Position numbers and translations under genes: made by a program. Of a DNA stretch of 64,000 nt, positions 32,042 to 51,239 are shown one piece after another. The stretch comes from Escherichia coli (GTDB lineage Bacteria; Pseudomonadota; Gammaproteobacteria; Enterobacterales; Enterobacteriaceae): assembly GCF_002854065.1 (NCBI RefSeq), contig NZ_CP024153.1; one strand, given 5' to 3'. Below the pieces are notes generated by a model, which was not told the origin of the DNA, did not search any database, and saw nothing but the letters and a program-made list of their open reading frames with translations. How positions within the stretch are numbered: the first letter of the stretch is position 1; the number at the start of each line of letters is the position of its first letter.

Positions 32042-33217
32042 TCAGTTAAGGGTGGCGCTGGAGGTCATGGCAACGGTTTTGGCGTTAACCGGCATACCCG
32101 GCATAAACACTTTTTGTAAGCCGTCGACGATGACGCTATCCCCAGGATTCAACCCCTTCTGAACGATGCGTAAACCGTCTGCCAGCCGCCCTGGGGTAAT
32201 GTCGCGGCGCTGTGCTTTACCATCTTTATCAACGATATAGACGTATTTACGATCCTGATCGGTCAGTACCGCTTTGTCGTCGATCAGCGTGGCTTTGAAC
32301 TCTGCGCTGCCCGGCAGACGCACGCGGGCAAACAGCCCCGGCGTGAACAGACGCTGCGAGTTATCCAGCAGCGCACGCATGCGGATGGTGCCGGTACTCG
32401 GCGTTAACTGATTATCGAGAAAATCCACTTTGCCCTGGTGGGGGTAACCCTCCTCGCCCACCAGGCCAATCTCCACCGGGAGCGCCTGATTATCGCTGGA
32501 CGCGCCTTGCCCGCGGCGGGCGAGGTTTTGATAGTGGAGGTAGGTTGACTCGTCGACGTCAAAGTAGACGTACACCGTCTTTTGCGAGACCAGGGTGGTG
32601 AGCACGCTGGCGGTGTCGCCCGCGGTGACCAGGTTACCGCTGGTGATCAGCGCCCGGCTGGCGCGGCCGTCAATAGGGGCGGTCACTTTGGTGAAGTCGA
32701 GGTTAAGCTGCGCGGCATCCACCGCCGCCTGCGCGGCGCGAATGTCGGCCTGCGCCTGAACCGCGGCTGACCGGCGCTGCTCCCACTCTTCACGGGAGAC
32801 GAGGTTGGTATGGACTAATTTATCGGTGCGGTTCGCCTCGCTTTGCGCGAGGCTGGCCTGCGTTTTGGCTCTTGCCAACGCCGCCTGCGCCTGCTCCAGC
32901 GCGGCGCGATAGGTTCTGTCATCTATCGTGAACAGCACCTGGCCCTTTTTTACCTCCTGGCCGTCAGTGTAATTCACTTTATCAATGTATCCCGAGACGC
33001 GAGGGCGAAGCTGAACGCTCTCCACCGCTTCAATGCGACCGTTAAAACTATCCCACTGACTGATCGACTTCACCAGCACCTTAGCGGCGCTGACCGTCGG
33101 GGCGGGAGGCGCAGCATTCTGTGCGACGCTGTCGTCGCAGCCGACGAGCAGAAAGGAGAGCATCATCGCGCCGAGCGCGGTCAGGTGAATGTTTCCCCAG
33201 GTTTTTTGCAGGCTCAT
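32042..33217 (-). CDS. oqxA: OqxA periplasmic adaptor (membrane fusion protein)
   Basis: 391 aa MSLQKTWGNIHLTALGAMMLSFLLVGCDDSVAQNAAPPAPTVSAAKVLVK... Confidence 0.93.
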   Translation of the reverse strand: MSLQKTWGNIHLTALGAMMLSFLLVGCDDSVAQNAAPPAPTVSAAKVLVKSISQWDSFNGRIEAVESVQLRPRVSGYIDKVNYTDGQEVKKGQVLFTIDDRTYRAALEQAQAALARAKTQASLAQSEANRTDKLVHTNLVSREEWEQRRSAAVQAQADIRAAQAAVDAAQLNLDFTKVTAPIDGRASRALITSGNLVTAGDTASVLTTLVSQKTVYVYFDVDESTYLHYQNLARRGQGASSDNQALPVEIGLVGEEGYPHQGKVDFLDNQLTPSTGTIRMRALLDNSQRLFTPGLFARVRLPGSAEFKATLIDDKAVLTDQDRKYVYIVDKDGKAQRRDITPGRLADGLRIVQKGLNPGDSVIVDGLQKVFMPGMPVNAKTVAMTSSATLN

Positions 33218-33473
33218 TATTTTTATTCCGGTAAATGTAGCCGCCGGGCAAGACGCAGCGTGAGAAGCCGCGCCACTTCCTTTGTCCGGGCTGGCTTAAG
33301 GCCATTTGTGTCGATCATCGCCACAAAACTGTAACAATTTCGAATACACTATCGCGGCGATTGTAGGAAGGCGCTTAACTAAGTGCAAGAATAATTGTTG
33401 CACTTTATGTGCGGTCCAGGGGGGGGATAAAAAACCGCGATCCCGGCGTGGATTTAAATGTAACAATAAAACT

Positions 33474-34293
33474 GGCACTGTTGCAAATAGTCGGTGGTGA
33501 TAAACTTATCATCCCCTTTTGCTGATGGAGCTGCACATGAACCCATTCAAAGGCCGGCATTTTCAGCGTGACATCATTCTGTGGGCCGTACGCTGGTACT
33601 GCAAATACGGCATCAGTTACCGTGAGCTGCAGGAGATGCTGGCTGAACGCGGAGTGAATGTCGATCACTCCACGATTTACCGCTGGGTTCAGCGTTATGC
33701 GCCTGAAATGGAAAAACGGCTGCGCTGGTACTGGCGTAACCCTTCCGATCTTTGCCCGTGGCACATGGATGAAACCTACGTGAAGGTCAATGGCCGCTGG
33801 GCGTATCTGTACCGGGCCGTCGACAGCCGGGGCCGCACTGTCGATTTTTATCTCTCCTCCCGTCGTAACAGCAAAGCTGCATACCGGTTTCTGGGTAAAA
33901 TCCTCAACAACGTGAAGAAGTGGCAGATCCCACGATTCATCAACACGGATAAAGCGCCCGCCTATGGTCGCGCGCTTGCTCTGCTCAAACGCGAAGGCCG
34001 GTGCCCGTCTGACGTTGAACACCGACAGATTAAGTACCGGAACAACGTGATTGAATGCGATCATGGCAAACTGAAACGGATAATCAACGCCACGCTGGGA
34101 TTTAAATCCATGAAGACGGCTTACGCCACCATCAAAGGTATTGAGGTGATGCGTGCACTACGCAAAGGCCAGGCCTCAGCATTTTATTATGGTGATCCCC
34201 TGGGCGAAATGCGCCTGGTAAGCAGAGTTTTTGAAATGTAAGGCCTTTGAATAAGACAAAAGGCTGCCTCATCGCTAACTTTGCAACAGTGCC
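33474..34293 (+). mobile_element. IS26 copy 7 (Asn184 variant); right arm of Tn6010-like oqx unit
   Basis: 820 bp with terminal repeats; same orientation as copy 6. Confidence 0.95.
33519..34241 (+). CDS. tnpA: IS26 transposase Tnp26 (Asn184 form)
   Basis: 240-aa ORF. Confidence 0.95.
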   Translation: MLMELHMNPFKGRHFQRDIILWAVRWYCKYGISYRELQEMLAERGVNVDHSTIYRWVQRYAPEMEKRLRWYWRNPSDLCPWHMDETYVKVNGRWAYLYRAVDSRGRTVDFYLSSRRNSKAAYRFLGKILNNVKKWQIPRFINTDKAPAYGRALALLKREGRCPSDVEHRQIKYRNNVIECDHGKLKRIINATLGFKSMKTAYATIKGIEVMRALRKGQASAFYYGDPLGEMRLVSRVFEM

Positions 34294-35115
34294 CTCCCGA
34301 TTAACTGGCAGATGACACGCCTCCTGAAAACCCCTAGCATACGCCGCAGTGTTCATGCTAACGGCGAATTCCAGTAAATGTATTCTACCGATGTCGTAAA
34401 AGAAAATGCTTACCTTTCAGCCACCCGCTCGGGGCTGGAATCGAACGAGATCGCTATCCTTCAGCGCTCTTTGCCTTCCCGCTTTAATCTTCGGCATTTG
34501 AAAAAAAATGAATCATTAAAACTCGTACTGCAAAAGAAAGCGGGAAAATCACGTGTAGTGGCTTATAAATTTACGTCCGGCTCATTTAATTACACGGCGT
34601 ATCGTATATCAGACAAAAAGTTCTATAATCTTTCCGATACTTCCGGGAAAGGCAGTCTCGATTATCCGTTACCAGCCACAGCAAGACTCAGTTCACCTTT
34701 CAATCCTGCAAGACTTAACCCGGTATCGGGAAAAGTGAGTCCCCATAATGGCATTGATTATTCCATGCCCATGAACACGAAAATAGTCAGCGTCATCGAC
34801 GGAAAAATCACCCGGGCCGAATACAACAGTACCATGGGATATTTTGTTGAAGTAACGGGAAAAGCCGGTGTTAAAACTCGCTATCTCCACCTCAATAAAA
34901 TACTCGTTACTAAAGGGGCCAGAGTTACCCGGGGAGGTGCTATTGCGTTATCCGGTAACAGCGGACGTTCATCCGGTCCTCATTTACATTATGAGCTGGT
35001 CATCAATAACAATCCTGTTAATTCACTGGCGTTCCGGGCATCGGCACCCGCTGATAACAAACTCGAACAGCATGCCTTTGCGCATGCCAGAGACTACGAA
35101 CGATACCTGGACTGA
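34294..35115 (+). pseudogene. M23-family metallopeptidase gene, 5'-truncated by IS26
   Basis: C-terminal ...PHNGIDYSMPMNTKIVSVIDGKI...GNSGRSSGPHLHYEL... M23 (LytM-type) signature; no native start (ORF begins in the IS26 end). Confidence 0.7.
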
Positions 35116-35148
35116 TAACGGGACCGCGACGCGGCCCCGTTTGCCGGA

Positions 35149-35346
35149 TTAATTTTTTTTATTGTTTTCACTTCCGTGATGTTGGTGATCCCCATGCCCT
35201 CCGTGGCCGTGGAAAAGATGCATTAGCGGGCAGACCAGCAATAACAGATATGGCCAGTAACCTGCCACATGTGACCAGTGTTCTCGCAGGAGGGCAAATG
35301 CCGCGATCGCGGCGACAGCAATAAGCGCATAGGTGGTACTTTTCAT
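35149..35346 (-). CDS. Small His-rich membrane protein (DUF2933-like) downstream of silP
   Basis: 65 aa with one TM helix and HGHGGHGDHQHHG tail. Confidence 0.5.
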   Translation of the reverse strand: MKSTTYALIAVAAIAAFALLREHWSHVAGYWPYLLLLVCPLMHLFHGHGGHGDHQHHGSENNKKN

Positions 35347-35386
35347 ACTGGACTCCTTCTGTTCATAACAGACCCTTCACTCAGTG

Positions 35387-37864
35387 TTATTTCCCGAGCC
35401 TGACACTTTTCAGACGCAACGCATTCACAATGACGCTGACGGAAGAAAGAGCCATGGCCGCCGCCGCAATAACTGGCGACAGCAGTATTCCATACACAGG
35501 ATAAAGCAGGCCTGCAGCCACCGGCACACCAAGTGCGTTGTAGATAAATGCAAAAAACAGATTCTGTCGGATATTTTTCATGGTGATCTCTGACAGATGA
35601 CGGGCCCTGTTCAGTATCATCAGGTCGCCTTTGAGAAGGGTGACTCCGGCACTTTCAATTGCCACATCTGTACCCGTTCCCATGGCTATTCCCACGTCAG
35701 CCGCTGCCAGCGCCGGGGCATCATTCACACCGTCTCCGGCCATCGCAACCACATGGCCAGACGCTTTCAGTCGGGTTATCACTGCTTTTTTGCCATCCGG
35801 CAGAATCCCGGCTTCAACCTCATCTATTCCCAGTTTCCGTGCGACTGCTTCAGCGGTAAGCTGGTTATCCCCGGTGAGCATAACGATGCGGATCCCCGCC
35901 TGACGCAACGCTTTAAGTGCATCCGGCGTGGTTGCTTTCACGGGATCCGAGATAGCTATCAGGCCTGCAAGGTACCCATCTGTGGCCACATAGATAACGG
36001 TAGCGCCTTCCATCCGCAACTTATCCGCAACGGCCTTTTGATTATCAATAACGATACTGTTTTCCTGCATAGCCAGTTCATTACCAATAACAACCCGTTG
36101 ACCTTCAACATCGCCTGAAACACCTTTCCCCGACGGAGCATTGAAATCACTGACTGCGGGTATCATGATCCCCCTGTGCTGGGCTGCCCGGACTACAGCC
36201 ATACCCAGCGGATGCTGCGAGCCTTTTTCCACTGCGGCCGCTACACGTAAAAGAGATGCTTCCCCACCCGGATTGAGACTGATAATCCCTGTCACCGTAG
36301 GCGAACCTTCCGTGAGCGTGCCTGTTTTGTCGACAACCAGCGTGTCCACTTTTTCAAGACGCTCAAGGGCTTCGGCATTCCTGATTAACACCCCGGCCTG
36401 GGCTCCTTTGCCTACCCCCACCATTATCGACATCGGTGTGGCCAGCCCCAGTGCGCAGGGGCAGGCAATAATCAGGACCGACACAGCCGCAATCAGACCG
36501 TGCGCCATCCTGGGCTCGGGCCCCCAGACAGACCAGATCACGAAAGCAACAACCGCGATAAGTATCACCAGAGGAACAAACCAGCCTGAAACGCTGTCAG
36601 CCATTCTCTGGATGGGGGCACGCGAACGCTGTGCATCAGCGACCATCTGAACAATTCGTGAGAGCATCGTTTCATCACCGACTTTCTCTGCACGGATGAT
36701 AAGACTACCTGTCTGATTAATCGTCCCCCCAATGACAGGGTCATCCTTCGTTTTGGTAACCGGCATAGACTCCCCGGTCACCATCGATTCATCAACGGTT
36801 GTTTTGCCTTCGATCACGATACCGTCGACCGGAATACTCTCTCCAGGTCTGATGCGGAGCTTATCGCCAGGCAGGACATCTTCCGCATTAATATCCGTTT
36901 CATGACCGTCATGATCCAGCCGTCTGGCGGTTTTGGGGGCAAGGTTCAGAAGCGCAGTAATGGCGCCTGAGGTTTGTTCCCGTGCCCGCAGCTCAAGAAC
37001 CTGTCCCAGCAGAACAAGCACCGTAATAACTGCTGCGGCTTCAAAATAAACGGCCACCAGGCCATCCATGTTTCTGAACGATGCAGGAAACCAGGAGGGG
37101 AAGACGGTTGCAATGACGCTGTAAACCCAGGCTACGCCGGTCCCCATTGCAACAAGGGTAAACATATTCAGGGAGCGGTTACGTAACGACATTCCGGCCC
37201 GGGCGAAGAATGGCCAGCCACACCACAACACGACAGGGGAGGCCAGAAGCAACTGCAGCCATGTGTTGTACTGTGGCGGTACTGTATTCCTCAAGTCGGG
37301 AAACAGATGAGATCCCATTTCGAGTACCAGAACCGGAAACGCCAGCAACAACCCCAGCCAGAAGCGTCTTGTCATGTCGTGAAGTTCATCACTCGGCCCC
37401 GTGGATGCCGTAGCTACGAGCGGCTCCAGTGCCATTCCACAGACAGGACAGCTTCCGGGACCACTGCGGCGTATCTCCGGGTGCATCGGACATGTCCACA
37501 CACCTTCAGAATTCTCTTTTTCCGCCTGGTGGTGAGGCTGTTTTATCTGATCAGGGCTGACTTCGTGATGATCGTGGTGATGGTGATGGGAATGTTCACT
37601 GGCATCTTCGGTAAGATAACGATCGGGATGGGCTTTAAATTTACTCTCACAGCTGGCGGAGCAGAAATAAAGTTGATGGTCCTGGTATCGAATGCTGCTG
37701 TGCGCCCTGTCGGGCAGGATGGCCATCCCGCACACGGGATCTCTCACCTTATGCAATACGTGGCCCTCGTCCGGGGATAATGTCTGCTCAGAAGCAGTCT
37801 GGTTGTTGTGTTGCACTGCATTGTTATTTTTCACTGTAACTCTCCTTATGCATATCTGAAGCAT
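35387..37864 (-). CDS. silP: SilP P1B-type heavy-metal (Ag+/Cu+) exporting ATPase
   Basis: 825 aa with CPC, DKTGT and GDGVNDAP motifs and His-rich N-terminus. Confidence 0.9.
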   Translation of the reverse strand: MLQICIRRVTVKNNNAVQHNNQTASEQTLSPDEGHVLHKVRDPVCGMAILPDRAHSSIRYQDHQLYFCSASCESKFKAHPDRYLTEDASEHSHHHHHDHHEVSPDQIKQPHHQAEKENSEGVWTCPMHPEIRRSGPGSCPVCGMALEPLVATASTGPSDELHDMTRRFWLGLLLAFPVLVLEMGSHLFPDLRNTVPPQYNTWLQLLLASPVVLWCGWPFFARAGMSLRNRSLNMFTLVAMGTGVAWVYSVIATVFPSWFPASFRNMDGLVAVYFEAAAVITVLVLLGQVLELRAREQTSGAITALLNLAPKTARRLDHDGHETDINAEDVLPGDKLRIRPGESIPVDGIVIEGKTTVDESMVTGESMPVTKTKDDPVIGGTINQTGSLIIRAEKVGDETMLSRIVQMVADAQRSRAPIQRMADSVSGWFVPLVILIAVVAFVIWSVWGPEPRMAHGLIAAVSVLIIACPCALGLATPMSIMVGVGKGAQAGVLIRNAEALERLEKVDTLVVDKTGTLTEGSPTVTGIISLNPGGEASLLRVAAAVEKGSQHPLGMAVVRAAQHRGIMIPAVSDFNAPSGKGVSGDVEGQRVVIGNELAMQENSIVIDNQKAVADKLRMEGATVIYVATDGYLAGLIAISDPVKATTPDALKALRQAGIRIVMLTGDNQLTAEAVARKLGIDEVEAGILPDGKKAVITRLKASGHVVAMAGDGVNDAPALAAADVGIAMGTGTDVAIESAGVTLLKGDLMILNRARHLSEITMKNIRQNLFFAFIYNALGVPVAAGLLYPVYGILLSPVIAAAAMALSSVSVIVNALRLKSVRLGK

Positions 37865-37960
37865 TTTTGTCTTCAGGGTATGTCATGGATGCGATTACCA
37901 CGAATATCGCCGGCACAGGAGTGCCTGCTACCGGCGTCCCGTTATCAGCCGTTCCGCTGA

Positions 37961-38407
37961 CTATTCGATTCGCTGGAAGACTTTTTTACTTCCATCCGGT
38001 GAGAATGCGATAACATCGTAAGCCTCTTTTCGGGCTCCCATCTCCATTCCAGGACTTCCTGCTGGCATACCGGGGGTGGCGAGACCGTATATACCCGAAC
38101 CAGACTGCATTGCCTTATGTATCGTTGTCGCAGGCACATGGCCTTCAATGATCAAATTACCGGCAACCGCGGTATGACAACTTCGTAGTCCTGCAGGAAT
38201 AGCATGCTTTTCTTTCAGGGCTGACAGCGCCTGATCATTCATGATGTGAGTTCGTACTTCAAACCCGTCTTTTTCCATCGCTTTGCCCCACAGGGAACAA
38301 CAGCCACAGTTTTCAGATTTGTACATATCAATCACTTTTTCACTCGCCATCGCGGGTAGTGAAAGGCCGAGAGCCAGCGCTATTAGAACCACTTTTTTCA
38401 TACTCAC
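37961..38407 (-). CDS. DUF411 periplasmic metal-binding protein (sil ORF105/SilG-like)
   Basis: 148 aa with signal peptide and CGCC motif; sits between silA and silP. Confidence 0.8.
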   Translation of the reverse strand: MSMKKVVLIALALGLSLPAMASEKVIDMYKSENCGCCSLWGKAMEKDGFEVRTHIMNDQALSALKEKHAIPAGLRSCHTAVAGNLIIEGHVPATTIHKAMQSGSGIYGLATPGMPAGSPGMEMGARKEAYDVIAFSPDGSKKVFQRIE

Positions 38408-38487
38408 CTCTGTATATTATCGATATAAACCCTGACGTCAGGGTGAATCAGTAAAGAAGGACACCCACAGGGGGTGCCCTTTCAGGT

Positions 38488-41400
38488 TCAGGACACGCTT
38501 TTTTTATGTCTGCGCAGCCAGATTAATTTGTAGGCGGCAGGAATAATGAACAGGGACAGCAGCGGAGCCGTGATCATCCCACCAATCATGGGTGCCGCGA
38601 TACGGCTCATGACTTCTGAACCTGCACCGGTTCCCCAGAGTATTGGCAGCAGACCCGCAATGATCACCGCCACGGTCATGGCTTTCGGCCGGACACGCAG
38701 TACGGCACCATGATAGAGGGCTTCATCAAGGCCTTCCGGTGTGAACGTCTCTTTACGGGACAATTCCGGGTGCGCTTCAATGGCATGACGCAGATACATC
38801 AGCATGACCACGCCAAACTCTGCTGCCACCCCGGCCAGGGCGATAAACCCGGTGCCGGTTGCGACAGACATATGGAAGCCCTGCCAGTACAGGAACCATA
38901 TCCCGCCTACCAGCGCAAACGGCAGGCTCATCAGAATAAGTAAGGCCTCATCAGCCCGGCGGAATGCCAGATACAACAGGATGAAGATGATCATCACCGT
39001 CATCGGCACCATCAGCTTCAGTTTCTTGTTGGCATGCTCAAGCAGTTCAAACTGTCCGGAGAATGACACGCTGGTACCCGGTCTCAGTTTCACTTTCTGA
39101 CTGATCGCCGTTTTAATGTCATTAACCACCGACACCATATCCCTGCCGCGCGCGTCAATGTAAATCCAGCTGGCTGGACGGGCATTTTCGGTTTTCAGCA
39201 TGGTTGGTCCGGAAACGACCTTAATATCGGCAACATCGCCCAGCGTAATTTGCTGCTTCATTGGGGTCAGGATTGGCATCTCTCTCAACGCCTGCGGACT
39301 GTTACGGTAATCCTGCGGATAGCGAATGTTAATAGGGTACCGGGCCACGCCTTCAACCGTCTCACCCACCATAGCCCCACCGATTGCTGAAGAGACGAAC
39401 AGCTGGACGTCGCCCACAGTCATCCCGTACCGGGAAGCTTTTTCCCGGTTAATGTCCACATCAATATAACGTCCACCTTCCAGTCGTTCAGCCAGTGCGG
39501 AAACCACACCAGGTACGGTTTTAGCGACTGCTTCGATACTCTGTGCTGTTACATCGATATCCGACAGAACAGTACCCGATACCTTAATACCTATCGGACT
39601 TTTAATGCCGGTTGAGAGCATATCAATACGGTTACGGATAGGCGGTACCCAGAGGTTGGCCAGACCCGGTAAACGGACGGTCCTGTCGAGTTCTTCAATA
39701 ATCTTGTCAATCGTCATGCCTGGACGCCACTGATCCTCAGGTTTCAGTTGGATGGTGGTTTCCATCATTTCGAGCGGAGCAGAATCCGTGGCGGTCTCAG
39801 CCTTACCGGTCTTGCCAAAAACTGAGGCCACTTCAGGCACCGTTTTGATTAGTTTGTCCGTGGTCTGTAAGAGCGCAGCAGCTTCTCCAGGAGACACGCC
39901 AGGTAACGTTGACGGCATATACAACAGGTCACCTTCGTTAATCTTCGGTAAAAACTCGCCGCCCACCTGACTCAGTGGCCAGATAACAGTGAAAATGGAT
40001 AAAGCCGCAACCAGCAGGGTTGTTTTTGGCCAGTGTAGTACCCTGAGCAGTAACGGGTGATACGCTTTAATCAGCAACCGGTTCAGTGGGTTACTGGTCT
40101 CAGCAGGAATTTTCCCGCGGATCCAGAACCCCATCAGAATAGGGATAACAATGATTGCCAGTATGGCTGCACCCGCCATGGAATACGTTTTTGTAAAGGC
40201 CAGCGGACCAAACAGACGCCCTTCCTGCCCTTCCAGGGTAAAAATAGGAATGAACGATAATGTGATAATCAGCAGGCTGATAAACAGCGCTGGACCCACT
40301 TCAACGGAGGCGTCAGTGATAACCTTCCAGCGGGTGGCATTATCAATCTGTTCCCCGGGATGCTGATGGTCCCACTCCTCAAGCCGTTTATGCGCGTTTT
40401 CGATCATGACGATGGCGGCATCCACCATCGCTCCGACGGCTATTGCAATCCCTCCCAGCGACATAATGTTGGCATTCAGCCCCTGGAAGTGCATGACGAT
40501 AAAGGCGATACACAGGCCAAGTGGCAGAGAAATAATCGCCACCAGGGCAGAACGGACATGCCAGAGGAACAGTGCGCAAACGACAGCAACAACGATAAAC
40601 TCTTCAAGAAGCTTGTAACTGAGGTTGTCAATCGCACGATCGATTAACTGGCTGCGATCGTATGTCGTTACGATCTCCACTCCTTCAGGCAGGCTTGCCT
40701 TCAGCGTGTCCAGTTTATCCCTCACCGCCGTAATGACTTCGCGTGCATTTTTGCCCGAACGCAGGATCACCACTCCGCCAGCGACTTCGCCCTGACCGTT
40801 AAGCTCAGCGATACCACGCCGCATTTCCGGTCCCATTTGTATGCGGGCAACATCACGCAGGTAAACAGGTACTCCATTTTCCCCCGTTTTCAGGACGATA
40901 TTTTTGAAATCATCAATAGTCTGAAGATAACCGCTGGCCCGGACCATATACTCTGACTCAGCAATTTCAACAGATGAGCCACCGGCTTCCTGGTTAGATG
41001 AGCTAAGAGCTTGTTTTACTTCTGGCAGACTGATGCCGTACTGCGTCAGTTTTACCGGGTCAAGCTGGATCTGATACTGCTTAACCACGCCGCCTACGGA
41101 TGCAACTTCAGCGACATTAGGAATGGTTTTCAGCTCAAACTTCAGGAACCAGTCCTGCAGAGAACGCAGTTCTGAAAGGTCGTGTTTTCCGCTGCGATCG
41201 ACAAGGGCATATTCAAAAATCCAGCCCACACCCGTGGCATCAGGACCGATTTCAGAACTCACACCAGCAGGCAGTTTTCCCTGAACCTGATTCAGATACT
41301 CCAGCACGCGAGAGCGCGCCCAGTACAGATCGGTGCCGTCTTCAAAAATGACATACACATACGAATCCCCGAACTGTGAAAAACCACGCACGGTTTTTGC

Positions 41401-41634
41401 GCCAGGCACGGACAACATGGTGGTGGTAAGCGGATAGGTGACCTGGTTTTCTACAATCTGCGGGGCCTGGCCGGGATAGCTGGTTTTGATAATGACCTGC
41501 ACATCTGACAGGTCAGGCAAGGCATCTACCGGCGTGTTAATAATCGTCCATGTTCCCCAGATGCTGAGAAACAGGGCCCCCATCATGACCAGGAAACGGT
41601 TGGCGACAGAGCGCCGGATAATCCATTCAATCAT
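38488..41634 (-). CDS. silA: SilA heavy-metal RND efflux pump (CusA family)
   Basis: 1048 aa [49 protein letters not shown]... Confidence 0.93.
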
Positions 41635-41644
41635 CGTCGTCTCC

Positions 41645-42937
41645 TCAGTGCCCTGAATGCATATTTACAGGCTGGTCAGACATTGCTGGCATACTGCTTT
41701 TTGTTTTTTCAGGGTGGCGCATACGTTCCAGCGCGCCCGTAATATTGGCTTCGGAGTCAATGAGGAACAGGCCACTGACCACCACGGTATCGCCTTCATT
41801 CAGGCCGGAGCCGATGCCGGACTGTTGCTGTGATTCATGCAGAACGTGGATCTGTTTCGGCACAAACTTGCCTTCATCATCAACAGTAATCACGCGCTGT
41901 TCTTTGCCGGTATCGATAACGGCCTGGCTTGGTATCAGCAGCATCTCCTGGCTTCTGGTATTCAGTTTCAGATAGGCATTCATGCCCGGCTTGAGAAACT
42001 CATCCTTATTAGAAACCTGGAGACGGACCTGAAGCGTACGGGTTATCTGATCCACGCTGGGAAGAATATTCCATTTTTCGACATGGAATGTTTTATCCGG
42101 ATAAGCCGGTACCGAAATTTCAAACTGCGACGTATCTTTCAGCAGATAGGCGATAGATTCTGGCACTGCAGCGCTGATCCAGACCGGGTCCATTCCCTGA
42201 ATCTGAGCCACCACCTTATCTTTCGAAATATTCATGCCGGTGCGCAGGTCAAATGCAGTAATGACACCATCAATAGGTGCTTTAATGGTAAAACGGGTCT
42301 GAATGCTCCGGGTAGAACGCAGTCTCTGAATATCCTCTTCCGGCATACCTGCCAGGCGAAGCCGTTCCAGAACGCCTTTAATTTGCGTGGAAGTACCACC
42401 GGTGCTGGATAACAGAAGGAATTCACTCTGTGCTTCCACCCAGTCCGGAATGGTAATATCGATAAGTGGCGTCCCCTTCTTCACATGATCGCCAATCGTC
42501 ATGGGGTAGACTTTTTCGACAAACCCGTCAGAACGCGCCTGCACAATAACAAACTGATACTCGTTATAGCTGACATTAGCCGGGATTGTCTGAGAATAAT
42601 TCAGCATTCCTCGCGTGACTTTTTGCGTTTTTAATCCCAGATTCTGAACCTGGGTTGGGTCGATACGGATCCCGCCACTGCTTTTATCGCCACTGTCATC
42701 AGCATATTTTGGCACCAGGTCCATATCCATAAAGGGCGATTTTCCGGGTTTATCAAATTTGGTATCCGGTTTCATCGGGTCATACCAGAAAAGTACCTTT
42801 CGCTCCGGTGCCTTTTGTTCGGTTTGTACTGTTTTTTGTGATGAGTTTACATACTGCCAGGCAGTAACCGATATCAGCCCCCCTGCTATGAGGCTGCTGA
42901 TAATTATTGCAGCATATTTTATCTTTAAAGAAGCCAT
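41645..42937 (-). CDS. silB: SilB periplasmic adaptor (CusB family)
   Basis: 430-aa MFP-type ORF immediately upstream of silA. Confidence 0.9.
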
Positions 42938-43050
42938 ACAATTTTCCGCTAAAAAATCAAAACACCTGGCATATGCGCCTGACGGTTAACTCACACATAT
43001 ACCTATGTGAATGTACAGGCGCACAGGATGTAATCGCTCCGGACAGCCAA

Positions 43051-43404
43051 TCAGGACTGCGTCACGTTAATGCTTTTGAGTAAGGAGATATTGCCCTGCT
43101 GAATAAACGAGAAATCGACATGGTTGCCTGTTTTCAGGGCATTAATAGCATCGTCTGCATTAACAAAAGTAAAGCGCATGGTCATTGCAGGCCAGCCCAC
43201 CGCTGGAATTGCTTCATGCGAAATGGTGATTTTCTTAGTATTCATATCAATGTCTTTAACGACACCGGTGCCCTTGATAACTTGCTGTACCGAAGCATCA
43301 CTGGCAGTATTCATATCGCCATGCTGATGTGTTTCAGCATGAAGACCGGCAGAAAACATGACAGAGAAGGCACCAAATAAAACGGCTTTAAGTGAATTAC
43401 GCAT
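43051..43404 (-). CDS. silF: SilF periplasmic Ag/Cu chaperone (CusF family)
   Basis: 117 aa with signal peptide; operon position between silC and silB. Confidence 0.88.
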   Translation of the reverse strand: MRNSLKAVLFGAFSVMFSAGLHAETHQHGDMNTASDASVQQVIKGTGVVKDIDMNTKKITISHEAIPAVGWPAMTMRFTFVNADDAINALKTGNHVDFSFIQQGNISLLKSINVTQS

Positions 43405-43431
43405 TTTAATTTCCTGATTAATTAAATAAAT

Positions 43432-44817
43432 TTACTCTACCCAACCGCCACCCAGCGCGGTAAACAGATTAATTTCGTTAACCTGCCGGGAATAGGTAAG
43501 ATCGAGAATGGTTTGCTGGGTAGCGAAGAGGGAACGTTCTGCATCCAGCACTTCGATGTAACTGACAGCACCACTTGCATACAATCCTCTGGCACGCTGG
43601 AGAGTTATCTGAAGTGAATCAAGATAACGCTGCTGTGACTCAAGTTGCTGGCTAAGGCTGTCGCGCAGCGCAAGCGTGTCGGAAACATCCTTAAAGGCTG
43701 ACTGAATTTTTTGTTCGTAATTAACCACCGACTGTTGCTGGCGAATTTCAGCCAGCTTCAGATTGGCTTTATTCCTGCCAGCATTAAATATAGGAATTTC
43801 AATTTTAGGGATAAAATTCCACATTCCACTTCCTGACGTAAACAGGCTGGACAGCTCCGTACTGCTTGCGGAAAGACCACTGGTCAGGGTAATGGAGGGG
43901 AAAAAGGCCGCTCGCGCTGCGCCAATATTGGCATCAGCCGCTTTCAGCTGATATTCCGCTTCCATAATATCCGGTCGCTGCAGCAAAATTTGTGAAGACA
44001 TATTTGGTGGTAATTTTACTGGTGCGATCTCCCCGCCTTTCATCCCTTTTTCTGACGGAAGTGCGCGGTACGTTCCCAGCACCAGTTGCAGGGCATTGTT
44101 TGCCTTAGCCAGATCGCCTTCTCGTTTGGCTATTTCGGCGCGGGTACTTTCGATTTGTCCCCTGGCCTGTTCAAGAGCCAGAACGTTCGTACTCCCGGTC
44201 ACGAGCTGTTGCTCAACGAAAGCATAGGACTGTTGATAATTTTTCAGCGTTTCCCGCGCAATACGGAGTTGTTCGTACGCCAGTTGCTGGCTGAAATAAC
44301 TTTGTGAAACGCTGGAGACCAGCAGGATGTGTACGGCCCGACGGGCTTCTTCGCTGGCAAAGTAGTTCTGGCGATCAGCGTCACTCATGTTCTTAAGTTT
44401 GCCGAAAAAATCGAGCTCATAGCTGAGTTTCAGACCCGCGTCGTACTTCTGTGTGGTCGGCTTGTCGCCTTTCAGACCACCGCTGTATGTGATCCCGGAT
44501 GAGGCATTCAGCTGGGGATAACGATCTGCATCCGTGACGTTGAACTGGGCCCGGGCCTCTTCAACCTTCAGGGCAGCCATTCTCAAATCGCGGTTATTAT
44601 TCAGGGCTTCAGTAATCAGCCGTGTAACCTGGGGATCGACAAAAAAGTTACGCCAGCCCGTATCCTGATAACCATTCACTGCTGGCGTCAGGCTGTTTCG
44701 GGACAGTGAAAACTGCTGGGGTACCGGTGCTGCCGGGCGCTGATATTCAGGTGCCAGAGAGACACAACCGGCCAGGATGAATATCGTGCTAATGCTGAGT
44801 AATTTTAATTTGAACAT
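43432..44817 (-). CDS. silC: SilC outer-membrane factor (CusC family); ORF track has a 101-codon spurious upstream extension
   Basis: 461 aa from MFKLKLLSISTIFILAGC lipoprotein signal. Confidence 0.9.
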   Translation of the reverse strand: MFKLKLLSISTIFILAGCVSLAPEYQRPAAPVPQQFSLSRNSLTPAVNGYQDTGWRNFFVDPQVTRLITEALNNNRDLRMAALKVEEARAQFNVTDADRYPQLNASSGITYSGGLKGDKPTTQKYDAGLKLSYELDFFGKLKNMSDADRQNYFASEEARRAVHILLVSSVSQSYFSQQLAYEQLRIARETLKNYQQSYAFVEQQLVTGSTNVLALEQARGQIESTRAEIAKREGDLAKANNALQLVLGTYRALPSEKGMKGGEIAPVKLPPNMSSQILLQRPDIMEAEYQLKAADANIGAARAAFFPSITLTSGLSASSTELSSLFTSGSGMWNFIPKIEIPIFNAGRNKANLKLAEIRQQQSVVNYEQKIQSAFKDVSDTLALRDSLSQQLESQQRYLDSLQITLQRARGLYASGAVSYIEVLDAERSLFATQQTILDLTYSRQVNEINLFTALGGGWVE

Positions 44818-45006
44818 AACGCTTCTCGTCCAGGCAGACCTGGTAAATGGTTCAAATGAAGTCCAGAGTATTACCAGGGTTACTTTACAGAATGCACTCT
44901 GTTTGTCGGGTGACAGGATAATGACAATGTTGTCATTTTTGCTGTAATCCGTTGATAACGATCGTGGGCGCAATAGAATGACCTTAGCAGCCAGCCGGGG
45001 AGCAAG

Positions 45007-45687
45007 ATGAAAATATTGATCGTCGAAGACGAAATTAAAACAGGTGAATATCTCAGCAAAGGGCTTAGAGAGGCAGGGTTCGTAGTGGATCACGCTGATA
45101 ATGGTCTTACCGGATATCATCTCGCCATGACAGCCGAGTATGATTTAGTCATTCTGGATATCATGCTACCTGATGTGAACGGCTGGGATATCATCCGCAT
45201 GCTGCGCACTGCCGGAAAGGGTATGCCGGTCTTACTGCTGACAGCCCTCGGCACGATCGAACATAGGGTCAAAGGACTGGAACTGGGTGCGGACGATTAT
45301 CTGGTTAAACCCTTTGCGTTTGCCGAACTGCTCGCCCGGGTGAGAACCCTTCTGAGGCGGGGAAACACGATGATCACGGAAAGCCAGTTTAAGGTGGCTG
45401 ACCTCTCGATTGATCTCGTATCCAGAAAAGTCAGTCGCGCCGGAAACCGCATTGTGCTCACCAGTAAAGAGTTCAGCCTGCTGGAATTCTTCATTCGCCA
45501 TCAGGGAGAGGTTCTTCCCCGCTCCCTGATTGCCTCTCAGGTCTGGGACATGAATTTTGACAGCGACACTAATGCGATCGATGTCGCAGTAAAGCGACTC
45601 CGCGCTAAAATAGACAACGATTACGGGACAAAGCTGATCCAGACAGTCCGGGGCGTGGGCTACATGCTGGAGGTCCCGGATGCATAG
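45007..45687 (+). CDS. silR: SilR OmpR-family response regulator
   Basis: 226 aa [40 protein letters not shown]..., divergent from silC. Confidence 0.9.
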
Positions 45688-47155
45688 CAAACCTTCCAGA
45701 CGCCCTTTCTCACTCGCTCTGCGGCTGACCTTTTTTATCAGCCTGTCCACGATACTGGCTTTTATCGCCTTCACCTGGTTTATGCTGCATTCTGTTGAAA
45801 ATCATTTTGCCGAGCAGGATGTCAGCGATCTTCAACAAATCAGCACCACACTGAACCGTATACTGCAGTCCCCGGTGGATCCGGATGATAAAAAAATAAG
45901 CAAAATAAAGGAATCAATTGCCAGCTACCGCAACGTTGCCCTTTTGCTCCTCAATCCCAGGGGTGAAGTGCTCTTTAGCTCAGCTCAGGGGGCGGCACTA
46001 CGCCCGGCAGTGAATTCAGCAGATTTTAGCGAGCACAGCCGCGCACGGGATGTCTTTCTCTGGACGGTGGAGGATCCTGCGGGACCGATGGATACCGGGT
46101 CCGAAATGAAGATGGAAACATACAGGATTATCGCCTCCTCTGGTCAGGCGATATTTCAGGGCAAACAGCAGAACTATGTCATGCTGACTGGCCTATCCAT
46201 TAATTTCCATCTCCATTACCTCGATGCGCTGAAAAAGAACCTGATTGCGATTGCCGTCGTGATAAGCCTGTTGATTGTTCTGATCATTCGAATCGCTGTC
46301 CGTCAGGGGCACCTGCCCCTTCGTAATGTCAGCAATGCCATTAAAAACATCACCTCCGAGAATCTTGATGCGCGACTGGAACCGACACGCGTTCCCATTG
46401 AGCTGGAGCAACTGGTTATCTCGTTCAATCATATGATTGGAAAGATTGAGGATGTCTTTACCCGCCAGGCCAATTTCTCTGCCGATATCGCGCATGAGAT
46501 CAGAACGCCCATCACCAATCTGGTGACGCAGACTGAAATCGCACTGAGTCAGGATCGAACACAGAGGGAACTTGAGGATGTCCTCTATTCCAGTCTTGAA
46601 GAGTATAACCGGATGACCAAAATGGTCAGCGATATGCTGTTCCTGGCACAGGCAGATAATAATCAGCTGATACCTGACAGGGTCATGTTTGACCTCAGAG
46701 CGGAAGTCATGAAAGTCTTCGAGTTTTTCGAAGCCTGGGCCGAAGAACGCAATATCACGCTCAAATTTAACGGGATGCCCTGCCTGGTTGAGGGAGATCC
46801 ACAAATGTTCAGAAGGGCGATCAATAATCTGTTATCCAATGCCCTGCGTTATACCCCGGAGGGACAGGCAATCACCGTCTCAATAAGAGAGCAGGAGAGC
46901 TTTTTTGACCTTGTGATTGAAAATCCGGGGAAACCGATCCCTGAAGAACATTTATCAAGGCTGTTTGACCGTTTTTATCGGGTGGATCCATCCAGACAAC
47001 GAAAAGGAGAAGGCAGCGGCATCGGCCTTGCGATTGTGAAGTCAATCGTGGAAGCACATCACGGAAGAGTGCAGGTGGAATCAGACGTACGCTCCACGCG
47101 TTTTATCTTATCCGTGCCCAGACTGGAGAAAATGATCCCGGAAACCCAATGCTGA
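45680..47155 (+). CDS. silS: SilS sensor histidine kinase
   Basis: 491 aa with two TM segments, HAMP and HisKA/HATPase regions; overlaps silR by 8 bp. Confidence 0.9.
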
Positions 47156-47405
47156 AAATAAAGATGTAAATGACAAAGATGTCATTAGCCTGTCATGCAG
47201 CAAACAGAAGCCATTCGATATAATTAGTGCAACTTATCAGGAAGGCTGGATTGCTTCATCAATACCCGGCGTCAGAGTACGCCAGGAAATGAATATCCAG
47301 CCCTCTTCCGGAGAAATAAACGCTGCCGAACTTGTTTCAGTTATGGAACTGAAAACACCGGTTGTACTTCCCCGGACATCACTAATTCAGAAATGGAGAG
47401 TTATC

Positions 47406-47837
47406 ATGAAAAATATCGTATTAGCATCTTTGCTGGGCTTTGGTTTAATTTCATCGGCCTGGGCCACTGAAACCGTGAATATCCATGATCGCGTCAACAA
47501 TGCACAGGCTCCTGCTCACCAGATGCAGTCTGCTGCGGCTCCTGTCGGGATCCAGGGGACTGCTCCTCGTATGACCGGTATGGACCAGCATGAACAGGCC
47601 ATTATTGCTCATGAGACCATGACGAACGGCTCGGCGGATGCGCACCAGAAAATGGTGGAAAGTCATCAGAAGATGATGGGAAATAACACGGTATCCACGA
47701 CCGTCCCGTCAACGTCTTACGCGGCGATGAATGAGCATGAAAGAGCAGCGGTTGCCCATGAATTCATGAATAACGGGCAATCCGGCCCACATCAGGCTAT
47801 GGCCGAAGCGCACCGCCGCATGATCAATGCAGGCTGA
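47406..47837 (+). CDS. silE: SilE periplasmic silver-binding protein (internal start of ORF 47289-47837)
   Basis: 143 aa MKNIVLASLLGFGLISSAWATETVNIH... with repeated His-x-x-Met motifs. Confidence 0.9.
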   Translation: MKNIVLASLLGFGLISSAWATETVNIHDRVNNAQAPAHQMQSAAAPVGIQGTAPRMTGMDQHEQAIIAHETMTNGSADAHQKMVESHQKMMGNNTVSTTVPSTSYAAMNEHERAAVAHEFMNNGQSGPHQAMAEAHRRMINAG

Positions 47838-47929
47838 ATGCGACGGTAGTATCCGTGCTGTTACCTTTTCCCTGATAGATTTTCCTGAAACAACGTTGCT
47901 ACATTTTTGCCCCCCGTCAGGGGGCTTTT

Positions 47930-48331
47930 TTGTCTGACTCAGCTACACTTAACCGGTACCTGTCTGAAAGGAATTATTATATGAAAATCAAAAACACCCT
48001 TTTTGTAATATTAATGTTATCCCTGCCAGCCATTTCTGCTGAACATTCGGAAATGAAAATGTCAGATATGCACTCATCGGCATCATCACAGGAATATATG
48101 GCTGGCATGAAAAATATGCATGAAAAAATGATGGCCGCCGTTAATGAATCCAATCCCGATAAGGCCTTTGCAAAAGGTATGATCGCACACCATGAAGGGG
48201 CAATCGCAATGGCTGAGACCGAGCTCAAATACGGAAAAGATCCCGAAATGAGAAAGCTTGCGCAGGACATCATTAAAGCTCAAAAAGGTGAAATTGAGCA
48301 GATGAATAAATGGCTTGACAGTCATAAATAA
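47930..48331 (+). CDS. DUF305-family periplasmic protein (metal-resistance associated); true start probably internal (about 47981)
   Basis: Signal peptide MKIKNTLFVILMLSLPAISA and ...GMIAHHEGAIAMAE... motif. Confidence 0.65.
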   Translation: MSDSATLNRYLSERNYYMKIKNTLFVILMLSLPAISAEHSEMKMSDMHSSASSQEYMAGMKNMHEKMMAAVNESNPDKAFAKGMIAHHEGAIAMAETELKYGKDPEMRKLAQDIIKAQKGEIEQMNKWLDSHK

Positions 48332-48404
48332 TGAACACTGGAGTGTTGTCTTGCGCACCCTCTTAGGGTACCCCCGGACACGAAAATATATAGCACTTAA
48401 CTAA

Positions 48405-48432
48405 TTAAAAACCCGAATAATTTCGGGTTTTT
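48405..48432 (+). terminator. Rho-independent terminator (AAACCCGAA/TTCGGGTTT stem plus T-run)
   Basis: Read directly. Confidence 0.6.
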
Positions 48433-48718
48433 AATGTAACTTTCTTTTCTGAACGGAAATAATAGTCATACAATTTAATTTTCTTGTAATTACTCCTACT
48501 TTTAATCAGGTACTGGACGATGGATAACGACTCCCGCCTGAGAGGGAAAATCCGTCTGGTTACCTGGCGCTATACTTAACCGATTGATCGACATGCCATG
48601 CTGGTAAAATATTAAAATCCTCCCCCATAAATCTGAACCACATGACAGGATTGATAGTCAGGCAGTATTTCACATTCATTGCTAAAAAAATAAAAATAAG
48701 CATGCATCTTCTCGAAGA

Positions 48719-49633
48719 TTAATTACCTTCCATCTTGTAAAAAAGAATCAAATCCTCTAATAATATCTCGATTCCCGCTTTTTTTAATACATCTTTCCGC
48801 TCGGCATATATTTTCCTCAACATATCTTCAAACCCCTTGCCAAGATGAATTTGTTTATGGCAGTTGCAACATAGTGATATGATATTCTCTTCCACATCCA
48901 GTGAATTCTCAAAATAGTCTTGCTTTGACATCGGGACAATGTGATGAGGTTCTGTGTAATTTAGAGGAGAGTTTCGCCTTCTGAACGTTGGATGGTCGCA
49001 ATTAATTTCACATTTATAATCAGCTTTGTTAAGCGCATTTTTTGAAACAGATTTACTTCTTGGGTATGAGAGTCCATTTTTGACTTCTATTGCAGCTTTC
49101 TTAGGTTTCGCTTTTTCGCTATACTCAAATGTCTGAGTAACGTCAAAGTGATTACTTTCTTCTAGAGCAGTGATCAAATCATTATCTGAGTAAAAATCAA
49201 TGCTTGAGCTTTCGTTCGTACTAAAAAAATCTAGTTCTTTTATTGCCTGAACAAGTTCTTCACGGATAGTCCATAAATTTCGCTTTGGGTTTCCTTTAAT
49301 TTCTCTACTTTTCATGACTGTAATGAATTTTGTCCCGGAAGCAATCTTTCCGACTCCTTTAACCTCGAATCGGCCAAGCTGCTTCTGAACTCTTCCACCC
49401 AACCCATTGATTACACCATTAGCACTCATACTGTGCAGGTCGTACTTCTTGCCGATATCGAAACATGTACAGGAATGGTCTGGCTCAATGAACCATTTTT
49501 TTAACGCTGCAATACTTTTGTCATCAAAAACTTTTTTATCCCTTAATAAAATCTTCCATTCTTCAACGCTAATATCTATATCACAGACGTATTCACCATC
49601 AATTACTTCACATATTTTTTCAATCATGTCCAT
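48719..49633 (-). CDS. HNH (His-Me finger) endonuclease-domain protein with uncharacterised ~200-aa N-terminal domain
   Basis: C-terminal YKCEINCDHP...EPHHIVPMS...SLCCNCHKQIHLG HNH/zinc-finger motifs; low-GC gene flanked by ~400-600 bp AT-rich non-coding DNA. Confidence 0.75.
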   Translation of the reverse strand: MDMIEKICEVIDGEYVCDIDISVEEWKILLRDKKVFDDKSIAALKKWFIEPDHSCTCFDIGKKYDLHSMSANGVINGLGGRVQKQLGRFEVKGVGKIASGTKFITVMKSREIKGNPKRNLWTIREELVQAIKELDFFSTNESSSIDFYSDNDLITALEESNHFDVTQTFEYSEKAKPKKAAIEVKNGLSYPRSKSVSKNALNKADYKCEINCDHPTFRRRNSPLNYTEPHHIVPMSKQDYFENSLDVEENIISLCCNCHKQIHLGKGFEDMLRKIYAERKDVLKKAGIEILLEDLILFYKMEGN

Positions 49634-50243
49634 AACTCTCTTGTAACACAGGCTTTGTAATAATGTAAAATCCGTTACACGGCGTTGTATGTAATGTCAT
49701 TGTCTCTTGGACTCCTACAGTCCAAAACAACTTTGTGTTTTGTTGTCCAAAAACTTTTTGTTGCAGTGAGTTCTCACTGAGATAAATCTCGCCTTGAGCG
49801 TATCACATCAGCAGACTTCCTCTCAACCTTATGGACTTAACCCGGTCATTCTTCACGACAAAGAAAGTACGGCATTTTACATGACGAAGAGACGGTCTCA
49901 GTTTCACATGACCGGATAACGTTTTTAATGTACTTCATTATTACGGCACGGGTGTTCAAAGAGTATTTTTAAATATTAATCATTTTGTTTAACGGGTGGA
50001 TACCTACAAATTTTAACATTTACTAATCAAGATAGCAGTTATACGTACTGTCCCGGCAAAAATCCTGAGGTTTACAGATTCCCTCACCGTAACAGACCCG
50101 GTCATTCCCCCTGGTCCTCCGGAGAGTCTAGTACGAGTGATAAACGTGAATTCCTGTACCTGAAGTTCAGCCGCTGGCAGATAAGTCGTGAACTATAATT
50201 ACATTCAGTCAGATCCAAACACCTTTTCATCTGCATATATACT

Positions 50244-51239
50244 TTGTACATACCAGGAGATTACATGCAGGCACCCGGTATACCGGAGAATGAAGAACAG
50301 AGGCTGAAGTCCCTGTATATTACCGGCCTTCTTGATACCCGTGACGATGAGCGTTTTGAACGCCTGACGCGGCTGGCCCGTAAAGCCTTTCAGGTCCCGG
50401 TGGCCCTGATAAGCCTGCTGGATCGCGAGCGCCAGTGGCTCCTCGCCTGCCAGGGCGTCGGCGTGCGCGAAACCCCGCGTAACATCTCGTTCTGCGGGCA
50501 TGCCATTCTGCAGGAGGGGCCCTTCATTGTTCACGACGCAGCTGCTGATGAGCGGTTCCGTGACAATCCCCTGGTCACCGGTGAGCCCCACATCCGGTTC
50601 TACGCCGGCCAGCCGGTGAGCCTGCCCGACGGCACGGTGGCCGGCACGCTGTGCCTGATCCACACCGTTCCCCGCGCCTTCACGGATGATGACATTGCGT
50701 CCCTCCGGGATCTGGCCTGTATCGTGGAAGACGAATTCGAGGCCATCAGCATGGCCATGACGGACAGCCTGACGGGCATTCCCAACCGGCGCGGGTTTTA
50801 CCGCGCCGGCGAAAAACTCTTCCGCGCGATGAACCGGCAGGATGCGTCGTTCAGCCTCATCTATTTCGATCTGGACAGGTTCAAACCGGTGAACGATCTC
50901 TGGGGGCACGCAGAGGGAGACGAGGTGCTGAAGGTTTTTGCCGGCTTTTTACATCAGCACCTCGAACCGGGCGAAATAGCAGGCCGCCTCGGCGGGGATG
51001 AGTTTGCCGCCCTGATCCGGCGAAACGGGAACACGAGTTCTTTTCTGCACGCGCTGAGTGCCAGTTTGGATCATTACAATGACACCTCGGGCAAGCCCTA
51101 CAACATCAATTATTCCTTTGGCGAACTGATCAATAACGCAGACCAGTACGCGACGCTGGCGGAAATGATCGGCAAATGTGACGAAGTGATGTACCTGAAG
51201 AAAAAACGAAAGACCCTGTCGCGGAAAGCAGAACCGTGA
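50244..51239 (+). CDS. GAF-domain diguanylate cyclase (GGDEF)
   Basis: N-terminal GAF-like region; C-terminal ...RLGGDEFAAL... GGDEF active-site motif. Confidence 0.85.
   Translation: MYIPGDYMQAPGIPENEEQRLKSLYITGLLDTRDDERFERLTRLARKAFQVPVALISLLDRERQWLLACQGVGVRETPRNISFCGHAILQEGPFIVHDAAADERFRDNPLVTGEPHIRFYAGQPVSLPDGTVAGTLCLIHTVPRAFTDDDIASLRDLACIVEDEFEAISMAMTDSLTGIPNRRGFYRAGEKLFRAMNRQDASFSLIYFDLDRFKPVNDLWGHAEGDEVLKVFAGFLHQHLEPGEIAGRLGGDEFAALIRRNGNTSSFLHALSASLDHYNDTSGKPYNINYSFGELINNADQYATLAEMIGKCDEVMYLKKKRKTLSRKAEP

Follow-up and report, generated by a model that had tools for sequence, protein, structure and literature searches.

The window, a 64,000-nucleotide stretch of Escherichia coli DNA, contains a complete sil locus from which pco is absent, and this locus is very probably a non-Tn7, F-plasmid sil-pco island of the pMRGN1031 kind that lost its pco side through IS26.

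Completeness of sil and absence of pco

All nine genes of the pMG101-type silESRCFBAGP set are full length (35387-47837) and follow the canonical order and orientation, uninterrupted and without internal stops, as the preliminary description had held. The minus strand encodes silP (P-type ATPase, 825 aa; 35387-37864), silG, also termed ORF105 (DUF411, 146 aa; 37961-38401), silA (RND permease, 1048 aa; 38488-41634), silB (membrane fusion protein, 430 aa; 41645-42937), silF (periplasmic metallochaperone, 117 aa; 43051-43404), and silC (outer-membrane channel, 461 aa; 43432-44817), and the plus strand encodes silR (response regulator, 226 aa; 45007-45687), silS (sensor kinase, 491 aa; 45680-47155), and silE (periplasmic silver-binding protein, 143 aa; 47406-47837). 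The calls were made with full-length NCBIfam models and matches above the curated cut-offs, using SilB/CusB, SilF/CusF, SilC, SilR, SilS, and SilE for the respective genes and CusA/CzcA for silA; silG was assigned by its DUF411 match and silP by curated models, with SilP matching heavy-metal P-type ATPase models in the profile comparison. The identity of silE to the pMG101-type reference allele is 92%. A silC/silR regulatory region (44818-45006) was assigned by its position between the two divergent genes, and the conserved small genes around sil are also intact.

No homologue of PcoA, PcoB, PcoC, or PcoD was found by tblastn in the whole 64-kb window, and the PcoE, PcoR, and PcoS queries matched only SilE, SilR, and SilS; by blastn, the matches of the pco module were confined to the paralogous silR, silS, and silE. 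pcoF was not found in the window either, its query matching only silE at 33% identity. These blastn and tblastn searches bear out the earlier observation that pco is missing from the window, and no pco was present in the 34 kb that precede sil or in the 15.7 kb of plasmid backbone past DUF305. Of the features that define a CHASRI, the window has the sil/cus module with silE and silP; pcoABCDRSE does not adjoin silP, and from the pcoF-pcoG pair that lies between pcoA and silP, pcoG is kept and pcoF is gone. Because no PcoA-D match exists in the window, we classify the locus as a truncated rather than a complete CHASRI.

The IS26 breakpoint upstream of pcoG

The order in reference islands is silE-silSR-silCFBA-G-P, DUF2933 (a small gene of 65 aa, here at 35149-35346 on the minus strand), pcoG (the M23 peptidase gene), pcoF, and pcoABCDRSE. 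All four islands compared (IncY pYLPM4a, IncF pMRGN1031, IncHI2 Tn7-like pF18S039, and K. pneumoniae p203) have pco on the silP side via DUF2933, pcoG, and pcoF, and pcoC-pcoB-pcoA-pcoF-pcoG-DUF2933-silP is a single contiguous piece in 2439 PLSDB records. Fang et al. 2016 gave the order as tnsABCD, 4.64 kb, silESRCBAP, 1.29 kb, and pcoEABCDRSE (PMC4855149), and pco beyond silP was likewise described in PMC4824010. The preliminary description was therefore wrong in stating that pco commonly follows silE, and its proposed refutation, pco genes just past silE, was sought on the wrong side, the 15.7 kb beyond DUF305 being pco-free. Since pco normally lies beyond silP, the missing module should have stood left of the M23 gene, which makes IS26 copy 7 the breakpoint.

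This IS26 copy (33474-34293, plus strand; placed by the junction alignment) also closes the oqxAB unit on the right. Native sequence restarts at 34294, which leaves 84 bp before pcoG, and from there is identical to that of pco-positive plasmids; the alignment identifies the retained segment (34294-34377, plus strand) as what is left of the pcoF-pcoG intergenic spacer, its final 84 bp. At the junction the IS26 terminal repeat abuts CTCCCGATTAACTGG, which in the aligned intact islands is preceded by ...CCATCAACGGTG. No 8-bp target duplication flanks copy 7 (left flank ATAAAACT, right flank CTCCCGAT), as is expected after deletion or recombination.

The pcoG gene (34378-35115, plus strand) encodes an M23 metallopeptidase of 245 aa with Csd3_N2 and Peptidase_M23 domains. 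It had been described as cut by IS26 copy 7, but the element stops 84 bp before the ATG and the ORF is whole, with a product 100% identical to the copies in pco-positive pMRGN1031 and pYLPM4a. An in-frame TAA directly precedes the ATG in the window and in both of these plasmids. The possibility that the 245-aa ORF is the remnant of a longer gene was rejected, as the same ORF and upstream stop occur in pco-positive islands and both domains are present. Its operon partner pcoF, the pcoF promoter, and the regulators pcoRS are no longer beside pcoG, which leaves it an orphan. The pcoFG genes are co-transcribed from PpcoF under the control of PcoRS (PMC4824010). A promoter scan of the retained 84 bp gave one weak sigma-70-like match (34312-34340), no better than shuffled expectation.

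An identical IS26/pcoG junction was found in about 12 PLSDB plasmids (4 records in this orientation and 8 clean ones in which IS26 is inverted), and the IncFIA/FIB/X1 hybrid plasmids that carry it comprise p2017.15.02CC_1 (AP027819), ON390815, CP077065, pG3X16-2-3 (CP038140), MT219818/19/23/26, and others. The cargo to the left of the junction is qnrS1/ISKpn19 in p2017.15.02CC_1, strAB with inverted IS26 in pG3X16-2-3, and oqxAB in pTAir-3. The locus thus combines the marks of IS26-mediated deletion and accretion, namely, a truncated native end, no duplication, and varied cargo across the same junction. In the history that we propose, IS26 would have inserted into the pcoF-pcoG intergenic spacer, and an adjacent deletion or IS26-IS26 recombination would then have dropped pcoF, its PcoRS-controlled promoter, and pcoABCDRSE, a loss of at least 7.7 kb (a lower bound, as the pco side leaves nothing in the window), leaving untouched everything from the 84 bp before pcoG through silP...silE-DUF305-HNH. 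The resident IS26 may later have served as a docking point for IS26-borne resistance units, with oqxAB-oqxR docked in the window and the qnrS1 module or strAB in sister plasmids. Because the same junction has differing left neighbours across plasmids, the deletion is probably older than the arrival of oqxAB. The comparison with reference islands that had been suggested for mapping the deletion endpoints placed the sil-side end at 34294.

An alternative is that pcoF-pcoABCDRSE was moved rather than lost, through IS26-mediated inversion or translocation to a part of the replicon outside the 64 kb. Such an event would be compatible with the seven IS26 copies of both orientations in the window, with the inverted IS26 at the same junction in sister plasmids, and with a view of the replicon that is confined to the 64-kb window. 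However, the partner flank CTCCCGAT/ATCGGGAG, sought as a sign of inversion beside every IS26 in the window, accompanied none of them, the closest complete relative plasmid is free of pco over all 105.9 kb, and pco is likewise missing from both sides of the locus within the window (34 kb on the left, 15.7 kb on the right). We consider relocation very unlikely and favor the loss of pco through IS26.

The right flank and the oqxAB unit

Conservation of the island core ends with a DUF305/CopM-family gene (116 aa; 47981-48331, plus strand), beyond which an AT-rich stretch (GC 0.38 versus 0.50 in sil) carries an HNH endonuclease gene (48719-49633, minus strand). The preliminary description had located the loss of pco here, after silE, with the AT-rich HNH islet in its place and the M23 gene clipped by IS26. 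The absence of pco, the sharp fall in GC past DUF305, and the end of Tn7-like IncHI2 island homology exactly at 48331 agree with that account, but no reference has pco past silE, where the Tn7-like island instead has an AAA ATPase and its tnsDCBA side and F-type plasmids, including ones that retain pco, have the HNH gene. Together with the uncut M23 ORF, these arrangements make a loss after silE extremely improbable. The HNH gene holds the same place in pco-positive pMRGN1031 (100.0% identity over window positions 34284-50500), and K. pneumoniae p203 has an orthologue, 78% identical, at the same site. Its shared site in pMRGN1031 and p203 rules out that the islet is a scar of the deletion or was inserted recently. 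In F-type plasmids the HNH gene natively adjoins the island on its right, and it has no connection with the loss of pco. With the loss mapped to the silP side, IS26 would have shaped the locus with no event past silE.

The island is not of the Tn7-like type that had been ascribed to it: tblastn with TnsD and the partial TnsC of pF18S039 detected no Tns protein in the window, and the two 28-bp Tn7-like ends of Fang et al. 2016, one of which could fall outside the window, each gave 0 matches in it at up to 3 mismatches.

The oqxAB unit (27458-34293) begins with IS26 copy 6 (27458-28277, plus strand; 820 bp with 14-bp terminal repeats, identical to copy 7) and contains oqxR (28317-28796, plus strand; an ORF annotated as this Rrf2-family regulator in the 99.9%-identical pTAir-3 segment), oqxB (RND permease, 1050 aa; 28866-32018, minus strand), and oqxA (periplasmic adaptor, 391 aa; 32042-33217, minus strand). 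Copy 7 is common to this unit and the sil flank, and it joins oqxAB directly to sil, as had been noticed. IS26 terminal repeats occur in the window only between 1981 and 34293, with none to the right of 34293, so oqxAB and sil do not form the single IS26-bounded block of metal and quinolone/biocide efflux functions that had been proposed; within the window only oqxAB is bounded by IS26.

Meaning and comparison with known islands

The phenotype expected of a pMG101-type determinant is inducible tolerance to silver and, anaerobically, to copper. In the established sil system, SilRS responds to Ag(I)/Cu(I) in the periplasm by inducing silE and silCFBA-G-P; SilCBA together with SilF exports ions across the outer membrane, SilP transfers ions from the cytoplasm to the periplasm, and SilE binds Ag(I)/Cu(I) in the periplasm. 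In many Enterobacteriaceae sil is reportedly phenotypically silent until silS mutates, as Randall et al. are said to have described in 2015. The gene content suggests that this locus has lost the Pco branch, which works through a periplasmic multicopper oxidase. In Salmonella SGI-4, silCBA was sufficient for copper resistance and deletion of pco alone left the copper MIC unchanged (PMC6543542), and the copper MIC of E. coli was unaffected by pco/sil (PMC6211086). One evolutionary reading, which we hold to be unlikely, is that the IS26-mediated loss of pco was tolerated or even favoured because Pco is redundant beside SilCBA, and that a livestock-associated IncFIA/FIB/X1 plasmid lineage maintains a slim sil-only island that gives drug-resistance units a fixed IS26 site at which to dock; any expression of the orphan pcoG would then start within the retained 84 bp or come from IS26 read-through. 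Because sil stands beside the oqxAB quinolone/olaquindox unit on one multiresistance plasmid, drug resistance could be co-selected where metals are used in feed or wound care. The arrangement is ordinary, already sequenced and known, and opens no new biological question. Its use lies in annotation and surveillance bookkeeping, for which the IS26 end followed by CTCCCGATTAACTGG, 84 bp upstream of pcoG, provides a precise lineage marker.

As a whole, the replicon of the window is absent from PLSDB and from the RefSeq complete E. coli genomes; there, the sil part, the oqxAB part, and the right-hand backbone match separately, and only pTAir-3 spans oqxAB-IS26-sil. F-type pMRGN1031 (CP019561), which is without the Tn7 part according to Chalmers et al. 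2018 (PMC6211086), shares the order pcoG-DUF2933-silP...silE-DUF305-HNH and the absence of Tn7 genes, and it shows 3 differences in the 10,122 bp between 34294 and 44415, where the pMRGN1031 locus used for comparison ends (99.97% identity); it differs in keeping pcoF, pcoE-S-R-D-C-B, and pcoA::IS421 where the window has IS26. A primary sil-only element never joined to pco, such as an ancestral sil/cus module that IS26 took up alone, is scarcely credible in spite of the description of CHASRI as built from separate modules (PMC4824010), given this near identity to a pco-positive plasmid, the retention of pcoG with 84 bp of the pcoF-pcoG spacer, and the abrupt break in homology at the IS26 end.

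The IncFIA/FIB/X1 hybrids and the IncFIB/IncY plasmid pTAir-3 (CP063951) have the same breakpoint, a complete sil, and no pco. In p2017.15.02CC_1, 3 positions differ from the window in 16.2 kb. A single-base indel between these two sequences lies in the silG-silP spacer. pTAir-3 resembles the window in having IS26-oqxR-oqxB-oqxA-IS26 directly against sil but has an IS26 about 2 kb past DUF305 and a different silC allele, which is also that of pYLPM4a (∼65 SNPs versus the window, 43486-45068); the silC/silR region is part of this SNP-dense patch. The shared junction combined with the other allele points to later homologous recombination in sil or to spread of the junction by recombination.

The core of the Tn7-like IncHI2 transposon (R478, pMG101, p3YG7T; PMC4855149; Hooton et al. 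2021, PMC8417528) is homologous to the window over 34284-48331 at 95.5% identity with the same sil order, whereas the window is without tnsABCD, the 28-bp ends, and pco, and its right flank is HNH/GGDEF in place of the AAA ATPase and tns genes. Many plasmids carry copies of the oqxAB unit at 99.8-100% identity, and, as in Tn6010-type IS26-oqxAB-IS26, the unit has direct-repeat IS26 around oqxR-oqxB-oqxA. It differs from that type in having no 8-bp duplication (CTCGCGAG versus CTCCCGAT), which fits insertion beside a pre-existing IS26 better than movement as a composite transposon.

The sil locus and the absence of pco
The silver/copper efflux (sil) genes of the window belong to an unbroken gene series that runs from pcoG through DUF305/CopM (34378-48331). 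The M23-peptidase gene pcoG (34378-35115, 245 aa) lies on the plus strand and is followed on the minus strand by the DUF2933 gene (35149-35346, 65 aa), silP (35387-37864, 825 aa), silG/ORF105 (DUF411; 37961-38401, 146 aa), silA (38488-41634, 1048 aa), silB (41645-42937, 430 aa), silF (43051-43404, 117 aa), and silC (43432-44817, 461 aa), and then on the plus strand by silR (45007-45687, 226 aa), silS (45680-47155, 491 aa), silE (47406-47837, 143 aa), and the DUF305/CopM gene (47981-48331, 116 aa). Because the genes are uninterrupted, the Cus/Sil proteins matched curated NCBIfam models over their full lengths with scores above the cut-offs, and SilE and the pMG101-type allele share 92% identity, the locus was called complete, in agreement with the preliminary description. 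We conclude that the sil regulon is structurally intact, including the divergent silC/silR control region. A dense patch of ∼65 SNPs at 43486-45068 (silC and the silC-silR intergenic region) separates the window from plasmids pTAir-3 and pYLPM4a, with 13 amino acid changes in SilC and the remaining sil sequence nearly identical; the pattern suggests recombination across a segment that takes in the promoter region, and the window's silC allele is common to pMRGN1031 (a pco-positive F-type plasmid) and p2017.15.02CC_1. A one-base indel at 37868, in the silG-silP spacer, was seen relative to p2017.15.02CC_1, with pMRGN1031 agreeing with the window and coding unaffected.

The reported absence of the copper (pco) genes from the window was borne out. 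The 9 kb pco module of an intact island gave only weak paralogous blastn matches to silR, silS, and silE; in tblastn searches PcoA, PcoB, PcoC, and PcoD had no match across the 64 kb, PcoE and PcoF matched SilE only, and PcoR and PcoS matched SilR and SilS only.

The junction at IS26 copy 7
The side on which pco is missing had been misassigned. All four reference plasmids compared, pYLPM4a, pMRGN1031, pF18S039 (an IncHI2 plasmid with the Tn7-like island), and Klebsiella pneumoniae p203, share the order pcoE-S-R-D-C-B-A, pcoF, pcoG, DUF2933, silP, silG, silA, silB, silF, silC, silR, silS, silE, DUF305, and Fang et al. 2016 gave tnsABCD - 4.64 kb - silESRCBAP - 1.29 kb - pcoEABCDRSE (PMC4855149). 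The two genes in between were named pcoF and pcoG by Staehlin et al. 2016, who described their co-transcription from a PcoRS-controlled pcoF promoter (PMC4824010). The pcoC-to-silP stretch is contiguous in 2439 PLSDB records; set against the 2552 records in which 80% or more of the sil query is covered, in searches that are not strictly comparable, this suggests as a rough figure that only a few per cent of sil-positive plasmids lack adjacent pcoABC. Since pco adjoins the silP side rather than following silE, its expected site is directly left of the M23 gene, exactly at IS26 copy 7 (33474-34293, 820 bp, perfect 14-bp terminal repeats).

In the junction alignment the window equals the intact islands from 34294 (CTCCCGATTAACTGG...) rightward, and to the left, where those islands read ...CCATCAACGGTG, it has the IS26 end. 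In pMRGN1031 coordinates, 190 bp separate the pcoF stop from the breakpoint, and a further 84 bp separate the breakpoint from the pcoG start codon. The window and the pco-positive plasmids have the same pcoG ORF (100% identity), with an in-frame TAA before it in each, so the M23 gene is not cut by IS26 as had been proposed. The native sequence immediately left of the breakpoint, CAACGGTG (14347-14354 of L004, an intact-island locus), resembles the IS26 end CAACAGTGCC (window 34284-34293), and BLAST alignments to intact islands therefore begin at 34284, 10 bp inside IS26, with the true junction at 34294. We conclude that IS26 removed pcoF, its promoter, and pcoABCDRSE, a loss of at least 7.7 kb as measured on pF18S039. 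Copy 7 lacks an 8-bp target duplication and its partner flank was not found beside any other IS26 in the window, from which we infer a mechanism that fits IS26-mediated deletion or IS26-IS26 recombination. Relocation of pco to a part of the replicon outside the window is very improbable, given this missing partner flank and the freedom from pco of the 34 kb left of the breakpoint, of the 15.7 kb right of DUF305, which runs into the sopA/repB plasmid backbone, and of the whole 105.9 kb of p2017.15.02CC_1, the closest complete relative (3 differing positions in 16.2 kb).

IS26 units and the order of events
Loss of pco through IS26 appears to predate the present left-hand cargo. The same IS26/pcoG junction is joined to qnrS1/ISKpn19 in p2017.15.02CC_1, to strAB with IS26 inverted in pG3X16-2-3, and to oqxAB in pTAir-3, and one junction with varied cargo indicates that the deletion came first. 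The resident IS26 would then have been the attachment point for further IS26-borne units, in agreement with the known tendency of IS26 translocatable units, reportedly described by Harmer, Moran and Hall in 2014, to target an IS26 already in place. Within PLSDB the junction occurs in four records in the window's orientation and in eight clean records with IS26 inverted, and IncFIA/FIB/X1 hybrid plasmids of pig and human origin account for most of the junction-bearing records. IS26 copies 6 and 7 flank oqxR-oqxB-oqxA in direct orientation (27458-34293), an arrangement seen in many plasmids. No IS26 terminal repeat occurs in the window right of 34293, so oqxAB alone is bounded and sil merely adjoins it, instead of both sharing an IS26-bounded block. 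The 34 kb multiresistance mosaic (1981-34293), covered whole by no PLSDB record, holds seven IS26 copies (five direct, two inverted), none with matching 8-bp flanks; one copy (15649-16470) measures 822 bp, and three positions distinguish the copies at 1981, 5344, and 10769 from copy 7. Solitary IS26 terminal repeats were found at two sites, 11615-11628 and 23184-23197.

The right flank and comparison with known islands
The DUF305 stop codon, whose final base is 48331, marks the exact end of homology with the Tn7-like IncHI2 island, and the AT-rich stretch beyond it (GC 0.38) contains an HNH endonuclease gene. This stretch is ruled out as a scar of pco loss, being present in one piece at 100.0% identity in pco-positive pMRGN1031, with a 78% identical HNH orthologue at the same position in p203. 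The HNH protein (48719-49633) weakly matches a PADLOC model for a type IV methyl-directed restriction enzyme (E 5.5e-7). It is followed by a GAF-GGDEF diguanylate cyclase gene (50244-51239) and a 223-aa ORF (52170-52841) that matches candidate defence family PDC-S67 (E 8e-28) and lies upstream of a tyrosine-recombinase gene (52861-53649). A G+C-rich tandem array at 56063-57148, flanked by an IS30 copy and rclA and common to related F-type plasmids, repeats a 37-bp unit (GGGCGGATTTCCACACGGCACCGGCGCCCGGCAAGGT) 29.4 times with 91% matches.

The predicted function is that established for sil: SilCBA/SilF export and SilP transport under SilRS control would remove Ag(I)/Cu(I), and SilE would bind ions in the periplasm. 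The loss of pco probably carries a small phenotypic cost, because the copper MIC was unchanged by pco deletion alone in Salmonella SGI-4 with silCBA present (PMC6543542) and was not raised at all by pco/sil carriage in E. coli (PMC6211086).

The preliminary description holds in outline, and its side of the pco loss, cut M23 gene, and IS26-bounded block do not. The right flank is that of pMRGN1031, which Chalmers et al. 2018 noted to be without the Tn7 part (PMC6211086), and the window has neither a Tns protein nor a Tn7-like terminal sequence; the island is therefore the F-plasmid version and not the Tn7-like one, in an arrangement already known from public plasmids.
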